Source of the DNA: Elusimicrobiota bacterium
GTDB taxonomy: Bacteria; Elusimicrobiota; Elusimicrobia; UBA1565; UBA9628
Assembly (NCBI GenBank): GCA_027319565.1
Contig: DAHVNA010000004.1
Coordinates: 1-64,000 of the forward strand
DNA: 64,000 nucleotides
Direction of reading: 5' to 3'
In this document: in pieces, positions 30,001 to 48,000 of the stretch
How positions within the stretch are numbered: the stretch's first letter is position 1
How the letters are laid out: each line of letters opens with the position of its first letter
Position numbers: made by a program

Positions 30001-33000
30001 GATTTCATTTTTTTATCCTTACGAGCCCTTGACTTTACATCAATTGGGCGTTAACCTATTGCCAGGCCTAAAGCCTTAAAAAAGACGTCAAAATAGCTAG
30101 GCCTTTTGGCGGGGTCTTCTCTAGGACCTTTGGCCCATGCTTTAAAGCCAAAAATGGTTTATCCTAGGAATATGAAAGAGAAACGGTTTAAGCGTGCATT
30201 GGCCTTGATTCTCGCTCTTTGTTTGGGGCTTTTGTGGCCAGGACAGGCCTATCAGGCTTTAGCCAAGGACGTCGAGGTTGACCCTTTAGTTCAGCCTGTG
30301 CCATCTCTTCCCGGGGGCTTAAACTCAGAGTCTGTCTTGCCCAATCCCTCGGAGAACGAATTTCAATCTTCCCTCTTGCCCCTAGCCTTGCCGGCCTTGG
30401 ACAAGGAAATTTCCCCGCTGCCCAATTCCGCCTTGGAAAAAGAGCCTTTGGGCAAGGTTCAAAAAGCGGCAGCCCCCCTATCCAACGCGGGAGAACTGAC
30501 CGGGAAATTCAATCAGCTTTCATCGGTTCAACAGCCAGAGAGTGCGGAACAAAGAGCTCAAAACTCAATTTTAGGGCGTTTAAACTCTCGTCTCTTTGGA
30601 AACAAGAAAGCCCCCATTTCCGGAACCGGAGCTTTTTCCAATAGTTTAAACGCAATCAATCAGCTTTACGACGGCGAAGGCGCGGCTTCTAAAAACCTGC
30701 CCCAGGAATCTGTGGCGAGCGCAAAGGCAGTGGGCGCTTGGCGTTCGGGGCTTAAGAAAGCCGCTCTCATCTCTGGAGCGGCGGGCGCGTCCGCGGCCTT
30801 GGCGGTTCCCGCATATGCGCAAGCCTTGCACCATGTTTCGGCGACTTCCGGCGCGTGGAATTTATTAGCGGCGGGCTGGCCTCTCTTCGCGCGCGGGGCA
30901 TATTGGGTCAGCATGGTTTTTGGTTTTATGATGGCGATTCCGGAACTTCATGAGCTGATCAAGAAAAGGAGCTACAACTGGAGAACCTATGGGGTCATTG
31001 CGGCCAATTTGATGGTGGGTCTCATCGTGGCCCCGGCCCAAACTTCGGCGGACAAATTTTTATGGGGTTCGGAGTGTTTGTCGGTTTCCGCGGTTTTGGC
31101 GGCGGGAATTATGCTGGCGAAATTTCTCCCGAAGGAAAAAACTCGGGAAAAGATTTCGCAGCAGGGCGGTTCTTGGCTCAGGAAATGGTTCGATTCTATT
31201 CGCACAGACCGCTCTCTCCAAATGACCTTGGCCTTGGCGCCCATTCTCATCGCCTCCGGATTTGGGATGTATTTTGGTCTTGCCGCCTTTATGCCTTCCT
31301 TGATTTTGGCGGTTTCACCCGTTCCATTGTCCTTAATTAGCGCCGGAATTCAGATATTGGTTCAAGGGTTTTACTTGTCTTTATTCGTTCCTGATTTAAT
31401 GGCGATAAAACGAGGAGAAAAGCCCTCCGGCTTTGCCCCGGGATTTGTGCTTCTTTTTTGCCTGATCGCCGCCTGCTTTGTTATCTGGGGAGGCACCCAG
31501 GCTTTTCAGAATCCGGCCAAACACATTGATTTGGTTTTAGTCGCGGCCTCAAACGTGCTCCAGTTCTTGTTTTCTTTCATCACCTACCGCGCGCTTAAAC
31601 GCCCGGATTCCGGCAAAAACACTAAGTCCCAAGATCCTAAGCTGACTGAAAATAATCGAGGAGTTTTTAACGGCGGCCTGATTTCGGTTTCCTGCTACGC
31701 ATGATTCCAAAAAAGTTCAAGAAATTTCTCTGCGCGTTTTTAGCTTTGAGCTTAATCTTGTTGTCTCCGGGAACCCGTTTTTACACCCTTTTAGCCGCCG
31801 ATACTCCCAAGGAAGACTCTTCAGATCCCTTGGGAAATCCCCTGTCTCTTCCCAATCAATCCTTGGATCCGTCCGCAGCATTCGAGCTAGGTTCCGAACT
31901 TCCTTCGCCCGCGCCTTCCGCGGCCCCTGTCTTGCCTTTGGCCCCAGGACCCAATCTCCAAGAGACTCAAACAAATAATGAGATCCCGCAAACCAGGCCT
32001 CCAATTCCAGCTCAAGCCAGACTCGAGGCCTTGCCGCAGGCAAAGGACCAGCCGCCTAAGCAGGTCTCTCAGCCCATGGCCCATTTACAAGAGCAAAACA
32101 AACAAAATGAAAAGGCGGATAGAGAAAGTTTTTCTCCTGAATCCTCCGCTTTGGCCAGCGCGGCCCTTTTTGACGGCGCCGGCAGAATGGGGGGCAGCGG
32201 ACCGCCCATAGAGCCTCCCGCAGGTGGGTCTGAAGCGGCTTTGCCTCCGCAATCTCCTAGAGGCCCTCCGGGGGTATCCATTTTCTATGAAAATATCCTC
32301 GGCTACCGTAAAGTTGTCGGCCTCAAACACGATTCTAACCTTTCCCGCCTTCCTCTCAATGCAAAGACGCCCCAGATCATCGATCAAATCTCGCGTCAGT
32401 TCCATATATCGCGCGCGCGCGTTATTGAACTGGCCTCCCATGTCGGCCTTAAAGAAAATTCCCCCAATGCCGAGTGGGATGCCGTCTATTTGGGCCTTCA
32501 GAAACTCAATGCCCAGCGCTTTCAGCATTTTGACGCCCAGAAATATCATCTCGGGTTCCGCCAGATGGCGAATTTGAGCTATGAGACCGGATGGAAAGGG
32601 GGGCTTAAGCGATCTTTAGAAATTCAAAAACATCTTCTAGGTTTTTTTGCTCGCTTTCCCTACCACCTTTTTGACGTTTTTGTCCTGGGTTACTTCCGGC
32701 AAAACATCAGCTATACCTTCGCTCATTCGACTGAGGATTTCCTAAGTCTTGCCGATGCCGAGGGCGGCTTGGTGGTGGCGACCGAGAACGCGGAGAAGTT
32801 TTTCCGCCGGGTTCTGCGCGAGAGGGCGATATCGGGAAAAGGGGAGACCTTAAGCTCTCGTTTTCTCGCGACTCGTTTGGGGCGGGCGGTGAGAATGTTC
32901 GGCCATGTCGCGCCTCTGCCGCTTCTAGCCTTTTTGAGGCGGCGCTTAATCATGGCCGTCGCTTCGGCGGTCGCGATGGGAATTTTGGGCGCCTTGGCCC

Positions 33001-45000: not shown

Positions 45001-48000
45001 TGCAGGGGCGGGAAAAACCATATGAAGAATCTCAAAAGAAAGGGGGCGTTGGAGAAAAAGCCCTGGTCGAGGCGTTAAGCGAGAAGGACTTGGGATTATC
45101 CCCTAAAGCCGATGGTTCCGGGGAAATCGTTTTGTCGGGAAAACCCGATGATATTTGGGTTAACCGCGCCCAAAAAACGGTTCATATCGACGCCGGCGCC
45201 CGGGAGTATCAAGCTGATTCCAAAGAAGCTCACGATTATGTCAACCCGGTAGAAAAAGAGCTTCCGTCCAACAAAAACGATTTGGCGTCTCTTAAGCTCA
45301 AGAGCGTGGAAATTGAACGGATGAGAAAGGCTAGCGAGGTTTTGGATTCCAACGCTAGAGTTGCGGCTGAGAGTCTTCACAAAGACGTTTATGGACGGGA
45401 GATTCGGATTCTTTCCCAGAGAGAAGTCGAAGATCGCCTCCGAGCGGACCGGGCTCGCGAAAAGTCGCTTCAAAAGCGAATTTCCTGGTGGCGGCGCTAT
45501 GTCCGTCGTTTGGAAAAACTAGAGCCGGCGCTTCAAGTTTCTTTTGTCCCCCATGCGATTTTATCTCTCAAGGACAAATTTTTATCCTACGCCGCCAAGA
45601 TTATGCTTTTCTTTGGAACTCTCGCGACGGTTGCGGGGGCGGTTTTTAAGAAGAAAAAGCGGAGAAAGAATGTTCTATAATGGGGACTGTCCCCATTATG
45701 TTTAAATGAATATCAAAATATCGGCGCTGACGGTTTTGATGGCGTGTTTAACGCCCAGTCTCTATGCCGGAGCTTTCTCCCGGAGCGTTGTCCAAGGCAA
45801 CGGCGTCATGCCGATGAATTTTTCTGGGGTCTCAAGTTTTGAGATTTTGCCTCAGAATGCGGCGGCTTTGTCTCCGAGTCTTGGAACGTCTTTAAACGAG
45901 GCTGCGCCCGTTTTGCCAAGTCCTGTTCCCCCTGCGGTTCCATCGGAGGCTTTTTCGGCCATGCCCGTCAACCCTCGCTTTTCCGCTTCGTCTTCTCAAA
46001 TTCAGCTTGGGGGAGGGGCCGCTCAAGGCCCTTTAGCGCGGAATTATTCCTCAGTCTCAAAGAATCAGGGCTTCCCTTTTTTTAAAAATATCCGGCATCG
46101 CGCTCTTGAGATGCGAGAGCCTCTTCAGAATCTGAAGGCCTGGGAAAATGACGCCAAAAAATCGGCCGAAAATGGGCGAAAAATTAGCGATGATTTATGG
46201 CGGCTCTTATCCCAAGGAAACTCCTTGCCCCAAAGACCATTGTCTAAGAACGCCTTGCCTCAATCCAATGCCTCGCCTCTCAATTCTCTTTTGTCTGCCC
46301 AGCCCAATTCATCCAATGCGGCTTTTTCTCAAGGCTTAAAAAACGCCCCTTTCTCTGATTCCTTATCGGGGCCAAACCCGGCGCAAAGTCCTTTGCCCAC
46401 GCTTGCCTCGGGGCGGGATCCAGCGGTTTCGGCAATTGGAGAAATTCCCTCCCCGGGAGATTCCGGAAATGAAATTTTTCTCGGCTCTTTGACAAAGCCC
46501 TCAAGGTCGGTCGAGATGGGGAGCGGTTTCGGGGGAGATTTACTATCGGACATTTCGTTTGTCGGCCGATTTCCGGTTTTAATCGTCATGCGCGTAGCTC
46601 GGCGGGTTTTAGATTTTTCCCTTTTCCGCGGGATGTGGAGTATTTCTCAAGGGTCCTCTCGAAGCGCGTCTTTGGGTTCCAATCCCAAGCGGGTTCTTTT
46701 TATCGCGTTTAACTCCAAGGGAGTTTCAATGCGTTCTCCTTCCGCGTTGAGCCTGGTTTCAGCCGCCGACATGCCGCCCTTATCTGGAACCGATGACGTG
46801 GCAAAATGGTGGCTTTCCTTGAGCCTGTTGCCAATTCTAGTCGCGGCCTTTTTATTTCGCCGCTCATTTTTGTGAAAACGATGAAAAATCGCAATCGCGT
46901 CGGTCTTTTTTGCATGGGAGCTTTGCTCGTTCTCGCCGGTTGCGGCGGAGCTCCTAGAAAAATCGTGGTTTTGGATTTTGCCGAGGGCCGGGTTGTCGAT
47001 CTCTCGATTACCGAAAAATTGACCGGAGTCAACGATTATGTCTTTTTCTCTCTTCCCAAAAAAAGCGAGTTTTTAGACGGGTATATTCAGGGCGTTGTGA
47101 CCGATTATGCCGACAATCCCATTCAAGGGGTGGTGGTCCGCGCCGTGGCCTCCGCAGAAGGCCAGGAAAGTCAAGATCAATTTGATACCGGGGAAAAAGC
47201 TTTGGCGGTCAGCTCTTTTGATCCCGGGGTCAGCGATTCAAACGGCTTTTACCGAATTCGTTTTTCCTTGCCTATTGTCAACGGCATTGTCGATGTTCGA
47301 GGGAAATTGGTGTACAACCCCGGCTGGGAAGAAGAGAAAGCCAATCTTGGAAAAGCCTATGAGCCTCAGATGAAACAGAGTCCGTTTAGGCTTTATTACG
47401 AGGAAAAAACCGGGATGATTGTTTTTGCGGAAGGAATACGCAAGGTGATTGTCTCTCCAGTCCGCAGTCTTTCCGGCGGGACAGCCATGGCCCCTTTGCC
47501 GGGAACATTGCCGCCTTCGTCTCAATCCGCGGCTTCTCCACAAAAGAAAGAATCAAAGCCAGCGGCCTCTAAGTCGGAAGACGATCTCTTTAAGGGATTT
47601 GGATTTGGCCCTTAGTCCGTTGCGAACCTTTCATCATGATGAAATCGGCTTACCTCGATTATAACGCGACGACTCCCATTCGGCCGGAGGTCATGGAAGC
47701 GGTCCTTCCCTTTTTGAAAGACGGCTTTGCCAATCCCAATAGTCCCTATCGGATCGGACAAGAAGTTCGCCGCTCGCTTGAGCTGGCGCGCGAGCGGGTG
47801 GCGCGTCTTTTAGGCGCTAAAAATCCGAGCGAAATCATTTTTACTTCCTCCGGTTCCGAAGCCAACTCCGCCGCCCTTTACGGAGCCGCTTGGCATTCCT
47901 TGCAGCAAAGCGGGAGAAACAAAATTATCGTCAGCGCCGTCGAGCATGAAAGCGTTCGCGAGACTCTCCCGATTTTGTCGAGTCAAGGTTTTAAGATTTA

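Follow-up and report, generated by a model that had tools for sequence, protein, structure and literature searches.

The 4659-aa protein encoded on contig DAHVNA010000004.1 of an Elusimicrobiota bacterium (GCA_027319565.1) is very probably a single-chain TolC-type channel combined with a second, helix-plugged outer-membrane pore and with membrane anchors. Our fuller reading, in which function is included and the protein is an envelope-tethered two-pore export machine, is offered more tentatively. The window analyzed comprised positions 1 to 64,000 of the contig.

The gene and its distribution

The gene and its conservation were established computationally. As the preliminary description had held, the ORF (31701..45680, + strand) is genuine, being uninterrupted by stop codons and conserved in relatives; its GC content (~0.50) is the same as that of its flanks, and its own genome carries one copy. 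Its status as a Pfam orphan was likewise confirmed, since no family matched at E ≤ 0.01 and the OEP cut-off (PF02321) was not reached. NCBIfam gave no score approaching a cut-off for residues 1-770, 3440-4600 and the last 99, and the family profile A1 had zero matches among PDB sequences at E ≤ 10. The claim that the protein has no internal repeats stood by BLASTP but not by profile comparison, which revealed repeats in the helical rod and between TolC units 1 and 2.

The gene is common to one branch of uncultured Elusimicrobiota, as the family was present in 54 to 55 of 401 genomes of the phylum and in 49 of the 59 from its own order; it was absent from most searched phylum genomes, including all 118 and all 89 of two large families. 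Proteins hosting the TolC core span 3,500-5,900 residues. The 18-strand barrel and the TolC core co-occurred in all 51 complete relatives, and the N-terminal membrane module (N-module) was present in 37 of them. The N-module and the tail anchor were both present in 36 and both missing in 13, giving 49 of the 51 complete ORFs, a both-or-neither count that is not independent because the 13 anchorless relatives are mutually related. The short forms carry a signal peptide but lack any membrane module. Since 13 of the 51 complete relatives are without both membrane modules, inner-membrane anchoring is not required in every member.

A predicted TolC core in a single chain

Residues 2325-3445 were modeled confidently by AlphaFold2 (pLDDT 84.7, pTM 0.84), using a 102-sequence alignment and no templates, with the five models at pLDDT 78-85. 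The model consists of six units, each arranged as helix-strand(s)-long helix-long helix, and it predicts that the core comprises six OEP-type repeats, equal to three TolC protomers, in one chain. Strand and helix positions previously given for 2350-2683 were recovered in this much better model; the TolC-like modules proposed earlier were upheld by sequence and by the confident model, but their extent had been understated, as the six repeats amount to a whole trimer equivalent. In Foldseek, ranks 1 to 39 were all outer membrane factors (OMFs), and among 48,161 chains OMFs matched the core at Z 14-18, the best fold matches being OprJ, VceC, and CusC (Z up to 18.3). The single-chain porins VhGalP (model 24-998; Z 8.2, rmsd 3.9, 152 aligned) and Tsx (model 22-1002; Z 8.0, 177 aligned) also spanned the core, at a Z of about 8, a level that the tool calls common. 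Because 12-strand porins align over the entire core unit at this level, the model appears to form a single closed barrel, with 11 strands and one helix. An alternating hydrophobic pattern was seen in 10 of the 11 modeled strands and was weak in two of those.

Protomer equivalent 1 (repeats 1-2, residues 2325-2682; 38673..39746, +) was delineated by model and sequence, and its repeat 2 retains the canonical YRNGL tip, the canonical periplasmic tip motif being kept in only one of the six repeats. Protomer equivalent 2 (repeats 3-4, residues 2694-3042; 39780..40826, +), supported by the model and a profile match of repeat 3, aligned with OprJ (5azp) at Z 18.3 (rmsd 4.0, 271 aligned). In place of the second strand of repeat 4, the model has an amphipathic helix (residues 2945-2959; 40533..40577, +; helical moment 1.74 versus strand moment 0.61), which follows a conserved Pro2944 kept in 95 of 97 alignment rows. 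Protomer equivalent 3 (repeats 5-6, residues 3058-3437; 40872..42011, +) was taken from the model, without a direct sequence match to TolC. Hairpin lengths differ among the repeats. Submitted as separate chains, units 1 and 3 gave a weak complex score (0.45; best control, 0.00), with at least 62% of contacts in common among runs and a partner pLDDT of at least 63; 116 of 157 solved pairs attained the mark for such scores, as did 2 of 215 mismatched ones; among these, scores ≤0.60 came from 18 of the solved pairs and from the two mismatches, and fragments that look like solved TolC trimers may pass through likeness.

Judged by sequence, homology to TolC covers repeats 2 and 3 only. Searched against 1.84 billion proteins, profile A1 retrieved ordinary TolC proteins, and 8 of its 10 tail hits in the 200-470 aa range (E 1.5e-6 to 7e-4) were Pfam OEP; the ordinary TolC matches cover profile positions 77-351 and 457-593, corresponding to repeats 1-2 and 3-4. 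One relative (P0063), named "TolC family protein" at NCBI, scored 28.7 bits with Pfam OEP (cut-off, 22). Coiled-coil mimicry is unlikely because the profile retrieves ordinary TolC proteins and this relative passes Pfam OEP. Against the 17 OEP repeats of the same genome, segments 2520-2700 and 2700-2900 reached 90.7% and 81.3%, versus ≤3.0% for the other 23 segments. By profile, repeat 2 matched OEP repeats at 86.6% and repeat 3 at 93.2% (reversed control, 23.1%); repeats 1, 4, 5, and 6 gave no match (4.6, 0.2, 0.1, and 5.6%), and repeat 6 fell to 0.5% after trimming. TolC units 1 and 2 matched each other at 83-91%. An Omnitrophota relative, P0120, showed collinear matches at repeats 2, 3, and 6 (50, 96, and 72%).

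A second predicted outer-membrane barrel

The earlier picture of one TolC-like duct had overlooked a second, separate outer-membrane beta-barrel of 18 strands, which is predicted at residues 1916-2268 (37446..38504, +) by a structure model that includes a lumen helix (pTM 0.46). The first half of this helix (residues 1754-1816; 36960..37148, +) lies inside the barrel lumen in the model, with its N-terminal end outward, and its polar residues are conserved. The top Foldseek rows were exclusively outer-membrane barrels, and the barrel matched Wzi (Z 16.4, rmsd 4.7, 280 aligned), CdiB (Z 16.3), PgaA (Z 15.7), and FhaC and PelB (Z 15.3). FhaC H1 aligned from model residue 585, CdiB from 589, and NalP from 580; these lumen-helix alignments run in the same direction (FhaC 3 to 585, CdiB 8 to 589, NalP 785 to 580), and all three begin before the break at 1748-1753. 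Since long loops come after the odd strands, strand 1 begins in the periplasm.

Flanking modules and neighboring genes

Membrane anchors were identified computationally in the flanks. The protein begins with a signal-peptide-like leader (residues 1-33, hydrophobic at 6-28) and a Pro/Ala-rich linker (34-189; together 31701..32267, +), and comparable leaders are found in relatives. The conserved N-module (residues 190-640; 32268..33620, +) contains a Gly/Ala/Pro-rich hydrophobic stretch, unbroken at 408-507, and family searches with the module found no matching family. The four transmembrane helices that the preliminary description had placed at 414-510 were not borne out, as one helix was borderline (+0.69) and the next scored +2.4 to +3.0 on a crude insertion scale; the best helices of nine ordinary membrane proteins in the window scored -2.2 to +0.5 on the same scale, by which the N-module helices are marginally hydrophobic.

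The helical rod follows (residues 650-1750; 33648..36950, +), and its modeled part, 1160-1747, consists of long helices. Residues 910-1760 are rich in Asn/Gln/Ser/Thr and contain internal repeats (95.9, 98.1, and 98.3% by profile comparison); these four amino acids make up 20-29% of the rod versus 11-21% of most of the core and the C-terminal region, and the net charge of the rod is mostly negative. Behind the core, the conserved C-terminal region (residues 3440-4600; 42018..45500, +) carries a variable-length coiled-coil insert at ~3995-4135, and a 5-sequence adaptor profile scored ≤0.3% on seven windows of this region. The C-terminal membrane anchor noted earlier was supported: a conserved helix (4630-4649) with a basic tail behind it (4630-4659 in all; 45588..45677, +) was kept in 39 of 41 complete long forms.

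An upstream partner gene (532 aa; 30106..31704, +) runs 4 nt into the giant ORF, with its stop codon overlapping the ATG, and its product has a signal-like leader, a low-complexity linker, and a polytopic membrane module of ~235 aa. This module occurs as a separate adjoining ORF at 7 other loci and is fused in front of the giant in 10 of the 51 complete relatives, which argues that the N-terminus is tied to a membrane; a PQ-loop match in just 2 of 21 module members (best E, 0.004) is a weak lead. The downstream gene (389 aa; 45706..46875, +), which encodes a signal, a low-complexity body, and a Trp-led C-terminal membrane helix, is a possible partner, and genes of this layout succeed the giant in many relatives, although profile comparison did not link them to the 389-aa gene (2.4%). 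The 26 neighbor ORFs scanned (1-6 kb of flank per locus) included no gene for a transporter, adaptor, ATPase, or synthase.

Proposed working and alternative explanations

In the model that we favor, for which we infer ring closure in the real protein, rod topology, gating, and transport itself, the chain would leave the cytoplasm by Sec and then put two pores into the outer membrane. The first would be the 18-strand barrel, with the chain's own helix as a plug; immediately after it, six repeats of the same chain would build a TolC-type duct for which trimerization is unnecessary. The fused protomers would be free to diverge, as in the repeat-4 helix, the unequal hairpins, and the single canonical tip, and where the repeat-4 helix sits the barrel wall may have a seam or open to the side. 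The C-terminal region of the long form would tether the duct to the inner membrane through the tail helix, and the rod would connect the plug helix with the N-module, so that rod and anchors could substitute for the adaptor and inner-membrane partner, which in tripartite systems are separate proteins. The most likely job would be to carry a macromolecule (a protein or a polysaccharide) out through the periplasm and outer membrane. Against this stand the four repeats missed by the OEP profile, the marginal N-module helices, the 13 anchorless relatives, and the lack of an energy-source or cargo gene among the neighbors scanned; moreover, the outward N-terminal end of the lumen helix fits a rod that exits the cell better than a hairpin.

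Such a rod is central to an explanation that we consider unlikely but serious, in which the 18-strand barrel translocates the protein's own N-terminal half in a type V-like manner, leaving the ~1,000-residue rod outside the cell for adhesion or contact. Here the lumen helix would be a linker, the adjoining TolC duct would move material across the envelope, and in the long form the rod would carry the hydrophobic N-module or be cut from it. The shared direction of the FhaC, CdiB, and NalP helices, the periplasmic start of strand 1, the composition and charge of the rod, the marginal N-module helices, and the short forms, whose signal peptide comes with no membrane module to retain the rod, are all consistent with this. 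Type Va barrels, however, have 12 strands and are C-terminal, and the giant's is internal with 18; a polytopic module fused in front should halt in the inner membrane, the path of helix 1650-1747 was read from alignment ranges alone, and a helical hairpin could also fit in an 18-strand lumen. An extended and rather improbable version makes the protein a contact apparatus encoded by one gene, and with it a secretion system of a new class, whose barrel would export its own stalk, whose stalk tip would enter the membrane of a neighboring cell, and whose asymmetric TolC would move effectors out or nutrients in. In that version the tip is marginally hydrophobic and sometimes bears a small transporter-like module, the duct is anchored at the inner membrane and gains a lateral opening from the repeat-4 helix, and Omnitrophota giant proteins would use the same duct module.

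It is improbable, to a slightly greater degree, that the protein is a membrane tether or lipid/lipoprotein route, mainly bridging both membranes, with the repeat-4 helix giving lateral access to the outer-membrane bilayer instead of belonging to a through-pore. The anchoring of the long form at both ends and the empty neighborhood would suit it, as would the conserved strand-Pro-amphipathic helix of repeat 4, which by eye P0120 also shows; yet P0120 repeat 4 was unmatched by profile (0.1%), the short forms lack the anchors, and absence from most searched phylum genomes argues against a core envelope function.

Quite improbable is a polyprotein that, once exported, would be cleaved into four subunits which then assemble: a membrane module, a rod-barrel protein, a single-chain TolC, and a tail-anchored protein. 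The N-terminal modules are exchangeable, fused or separate, and cleavage of Omnitrophota giant proteins has been proposed (10.1101/2023.11.21.568195); against this, every full-length member preserves the order and spacing of the region from about 760 to 4500, ordered helices connect the barrel to the TolC core in the model, a search of the chain gave no protease domain, and in the single split locus that was inspected (L034) the frames overlap, as in a frameshift. That repeats 2-3 alone derive from TolC and AlphaFold2 forced a coiled coil into a ring, as the four OEP-silent repeats and the weak complex score might suggest, is scarcely credible given the template-free models, the hydrophobic pattern of the strands, the reach of ordinary TolC hits into repeats 1-2 and 3-4, and the collinearity of repeats 2, 3, and 6 with the Omnitrophota protein.

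Significance and comparison with known systems

TolC channels are textbook trimers, and a natural single-chain TolC would show the outcome of released symmetry: a wall that has an odd number of strands and includes a helix, and gates that are unequal. This is relevant to outer-membrane barrel assembly and to the engineering of asymmetric pores. The core (1,100 residues) and the plugged barrel (500 residues) are separately expressible, testable units. The protein is also a practical entry point to the huge, unannotated proteins of Elusimicrobiota and Omnitrophota. Enrichment of such proteins has been reported without an assigned function (PMC11573180), and how giant proteins cross the envelope is posed as a question in 10.1101/2023.11.21.568195. 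Our literature search found no description of such a cell-envelope machine; the combined architecture fits no described secretion type, and both pore folds are already known.

According to PMC8277102, known OMFs are trimeric 12-strand channels whose protomers have two repeats and ~450 residues. Like them (TolC, OprM, OprJ, VceC, CusC, CmeC, MtrE), the giant has two membrane strands plus long helices per repeat and six repeats per channel; unlike them, it has all six in one chain within a 3,500-5,900-residue protein, with a helix as the second strand of repeat 4 (11 strands modeled) and one canonical tip in six. It thus departs from the standard trimerizing protomer, its six-repeat core being whole in 51/51. 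With tripartite pumps and type I secretion (AcrAB-TolC, MacAB-TolC, HlyBD-TolC) it shares the TolC-type duct and, in its long form, end membrane segments that could reach the inner membrane, but it has a second outer-membrane barrel and no adaptor, RND, MFS, or ABC part recognized in it or in the neighbors scanned. As in type V secretion (NalP; the TpsB proteins FhaC and CdiB), the modeled barrel holds an N-terminal lumen helix in the same direction, whereas it has 18 strands instead of 12 or 16 and is internal, with ~2,400 residues after it and an all-helical N-terminal region. On this basis it departs from two known classes: type Va autotransporters, given an 18-strand barrel at 1916-2268 of 4659 and not a 12-strand C-terminal one, and TpsB/Omp85, whose barrels have 16 strands and from which it also differs in that no POTRA pair is evident from model secondary structure. 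The barrel resembles the polysaccharide export and assembly barrels Wzi, AlgE, PgaA, PelB, and BcsC, which stand at or near the top of its fold matches (Z 14.5-16.4, tied with other porins) but at identities of 5-9%, with no TPR family by Pfam in the giant and no synthase among the neighbors scanned (1-6 kb flank). Finally, the Omnitrophota giants with a TolC-like block (P0120, MBU4477769.1) are collinearly homologous to it in repeats 2, 3, and 6 and differ from it in their flanks.

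Gene and genomic surroundings

The giant gene, at 31701-45680 on the plus strand, is open throughout its 4,659 codons and has an ordinary GC content; it is present as a single copy in the genome, and BLASTP of the protein against itself gave no internal match. A Pfam search found zero families in the giant, and none either in the 532-aa upstream gene (30106-31704), whose stop shares 4 bases with the giant's start, or in the 389-aa downstream gene (45706-46875), which starts 25 bases past its stop. Ordinary TolC genes, with 17 OEP stretches spread over 9 ORFs, are encoded in the genome as well; the giant is therefore not the sole outer membrane factor (OMF) there. 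No adaptor, transporter or synthase was detected in 26 neighbor ORFs scanned from the larger clusters; many neighbor clusters were shadow frames of GC-rich DNA and were ignored. For the downstream gene and its counterparts at other loci, the first profile was circular (seeded with the genes found) and was discarded; an independent test of homology gave 2.4%.

Elsewhere in the window, the minus-strand gene at 50347-52440 encodes an M3 oligopeptidase whose signal-like leader and linker are similar to those of the giant and the upstream gene. A crude filter found a shared 'FDG' leader motif in only 4 to 5 proteins of the genome, and we do not propose it as a secretion signal. An ordinary CusA/CusB/TolC-type efflux cluster occupies 58159-64000 (minus strand), continues past the window on contig C56 and also holds a second short ACR_tran fragment (58159-58722). 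The genes at 14852-17215 (plus strand, 787 aa) and 25319-26116 (minus strand, 265 aa) have no Pfam family.

Homology of the core to TolC

The preliminary description had read a TolC-like duct into the middle of the protein, and this reading was borne out and extended: by sequence for repeats 2 and 3, by a six-repeat model and by a second barrel. Searched over 1.84 billion proteins, a 57-row profile of the core (residues 2325-3445) gave 109 matches. The 10 tail matches of 200 to 470 aa, among 17 scanned against Pfam, comprised eight OEP proteins, one LptF/G protein and one formyl transferase, and ordinary TolC matches spanned profile positions 77-351 and 457-593. In a family member of 3,776 aa, the region corresponding to repeat 3 scored above the OEP cut-off. 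When the genome's 17 OEP repeats were compared with 25 windows of the giant, two windows reached 90.7% and 81.3%; none of the remaining 23, which include many coiled-coil windows, exceeded 3.0%. In global mode, repeats 1 to 6 taken singly scored 4.6, 86.6, 93.2, 0.2, 0.1 and 5.6% against OEP repeats, and their reversed controls scored 0.8, 0.1, 23.1, 0.1, 0.1 and 0.1%, respectively. Together with the core-profile matches, these scores limit the homology to TolC, as judged by sequence, to repeats 2 and 3, and repeats 1, 4, 5 and 6 lie outside this demonstration. The result rests on the 17-repeat alignment; a full-length TolC alignment was set aside because one adaptor ORF had entered it via coordinate overlap, and an enlarged version because it was circular, containing matches of the family profile.

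PDB sequences gave coiled-coil noise only against profiles of the core, the barrel region, the C region, the N-module and the partner module. The Omnitrophota protein P0120 matched repeats 2, 3 and 6 in order (50, 96 and 72%), with no match to repeats 4 and 5 in the profile comparison. By eye, this giant opens with a distant six-repeat block (residues 1-930), in which a proline followed by a hydrophobic helix stands at the repeat-4 position.

A six-repeat duct with predicted broken symmetry

AlphaFold2, run on 102 rows with no templates, modeled the 1,121 core residues with a pLDDT of 84.7 and a pTM of 0.84, as six units each consisting of a helix, a strand pair and two long helices. Foldseek of this model listed OMFs exclusively down to rank 39. 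In structural alignment, OprJ fell on 2694-3042 (Z 18.3, rmsd 4.0, 271 residues) and further OMFs on 2398-2887 (Z 10 to 12); unit 3 (repeats 5 and 6) was missing from the OMF rows of this alignment and of a wider search because each chain was reported once, at its best place. In the wide search, the alignments of two single-chain porins ran from the first hairpin through to the last (model positions 24-998 and 22-1002; Z 8.2 and 8.0), and these alignments over all hairpins, of modest Z, indicate that the strands form one barrel in the model. Folded as separate chains, units 1 (repeats 1 and 2) and 3 gave a complex score of 0.45 versus 0.00 for the best control. Among reference pairs, 18 of 157 solved ones passed at this level, as did 2 of 215 mismatched ones, and likeness to solved trimers can produce such a score; at least 62% of contacts were shared and the partner pLDDT was at least 63. 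The two-chain fold thus lends weak support to a predicted contact between units 1 and 3. According to an excerpt of PMC8277102, the TolC channel consists of three protomers with two repeats each, so six repeats would make up one channel.

The modeled repeats are unequal. Repeat 4 has one strand (2937-2941), followed by Pro2944 (in 95 of 97 rows) and a modeled helix; the hydrophobic moment of this segment is helical in pattern (1.74 at 100 degrees, 0.61 at 170), from which 10 of the 11 strands differ. The long helices of the model measure 66 to 68 residues in repeats 2 and 3, compared with about 50 in repeats 1, 4 and 5, and only repeat 2 has a conserved tip (YRNGL; 0.63 versus 0.35 to 0.50). 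We infer a wall of 11 strands that has a seam or opens to the side and would lack the six-fold surface on which a standard adaptor ring docks.

A second barrel with a predicted lumen helix

In the model of residues 1160-2350 (78 rows, pLDDT 77.7, pTM 0.46), long helices extend as far as 1816 and residues 1916-2268 form 18 strands, the longer loops following the odd ones. Every row listed by Foldseek for the barrel was an outer-membrane barrel. The wide search gave Wzi (16.4), CdiB (16.3), PgaA (15.7), and FhaC and PelB (15.3), followed by Occ porins, BcsC and AlgE; these scores are too close for a family to be named. ESM Atlas leads for this region (DUF5723, YgjJ and TprD) were below 0.9.

Barrels with a lumen helix aligned from model positions 580-611, and the periplasmic domains of BamA, TamA, PelB and BcsC from 616-619; these ranges would place the helix at 1754-1780 in the lumen, its N-terminal end outward. 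The FhaC and NalP ranges lean toward the preceding 98-residue helix continuing outside. This leaning favors the main rival to the two-pore export reading, in which a type V-like stalk stands on the cell surface next to the duct and to which we assign a rather low probability; mutual-information coevolution over the 78 rows gave noise only on hairpin versus outward helix.

Flanking regions and the upstream partner

The rod (650-1750) has internal repeats by profile comparison and is rich in Asn, Gln, Ser and Thr. The N-module (190-640) is well conserved, yet it matched no family, and its hydrophobicity was only marginal on a crude insertion scale. We regard the upstream gene's membrane module as a likely partner of the giant, because it is fused at the N terminus in 10 of 51 complete giants and is a separate neighbor in 7 other loci. 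Its assignment as a PQ-loop protein is a weak lead, and no stand-alone relatives emerged among 8,000 scored candidates. In long relatives (e.g., loci L037, L041, L033 and L056), the partner module and the N-module are separated by a domain of ~140 aa, in one or two copies, that has no Pfam match. By eye, from its motif, this domain looks PepSY-like.

The C region (3440-4600) scored at most 0.3% against a clean 5-sequence adaptor profile and had no usable match in the ESM Atlas; its coiled-coil insert has 53 to 196 residues in long forms and 14 to 35 in short ones. An apparent repeat (3970-4007 and 4131-4168) was rejected as an alignment artefact, giving 3.1% with long forms only. Of 41 complete long forms, 39 carry the tail helix (4630-4649), which all 15 short forms lack. 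Eight C-terminal tails were compared, and none matched the known kinds of sorting signal.

Distribution and forms of the family

Residues 2330-3420 were matched in 54 of 401 genomes of the phylum, the giant's own included. Within the order, which the preliminary description calls UBA1565, carriers made up 39 of 47 genomes in its own family and, in other families, 9 of 10 and 1 of 2. Outside the order, two families had 3 of 4 and 1 of 1, versus 0 of 118, 0 of 47 and 0 of 89 in three large families. The barrel-region profile showed the same pattern (55 of 401). Named relatives are Elusimicrobia; one carrier, CP096137.1, which came from an amoeba culture, is described as a diderm, aerobic heterotroph of UBA1565 that is auxotrophic for seven amino acids (PMC9476967).

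Members are collinear from ~760 to 4500. From 92 non-redundant loci, we drew 51 complete, non-redundant ORFs (closed at both ends, >3,400 aa, without X), all 51 of which contain the barrel and the TolC core. The N-terminal membrane module and the tail helix are both present in 36, both absent in 13 and present singly in 2; short forms begin with signal-like leaders. The giant is a real and conserved gene.

Many carriers (about 15 genomes) have two paralogues, one long and anchored and one anchorless of ~3,800 aa. In 22 loci (e.g., L035:17751-18776 and L037:17832-18743), the giant is directly preceded on the same strand by the gene of a Y1 (IS200-like) transposase whose tail is DnaA-C-like; this gene is absent from the window. 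Shortly upstream of the giant in ten loci (L039:3-1397, L045:2-1120, L051:2-4408 and seven more) is a large gene that has no Pfam match but ends in a helicase-like C-terminal motif, reminiscent of the SecA-like domains that have been reported for giant proteins of Omnitrophota.

Proposed function and comparison with known systems

We tentatively favor a reading in which the giant is an outer-membrane machine with two pores, one of them an asymmetric TolC duct built into the chain; in the long form the machine would be tied to the inner membrane and would most likely serve macromolecule export; transport, cargo, energy source and topology alike we infer. A literature search, which covered few subscription papers, found no title or abstract describing a single-chain TolC or the giant's family. 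Elusimicrobiota are described as rich in huge, unassigned proteins in the available portion of PMC11573180, which leaves TolC unmentioned, and the main text of the giant-gene preprint (10.1101/2023.11.21.568195), in its accessible part, does not mention TolC. According to an extract of PMC4827864, some proteins combine two or three outer-membrane pore domains in a single chain, so tandem pores as such are known. Both pore folds of the giant are likewise known, and their combination in one anchored chain matches no described system.
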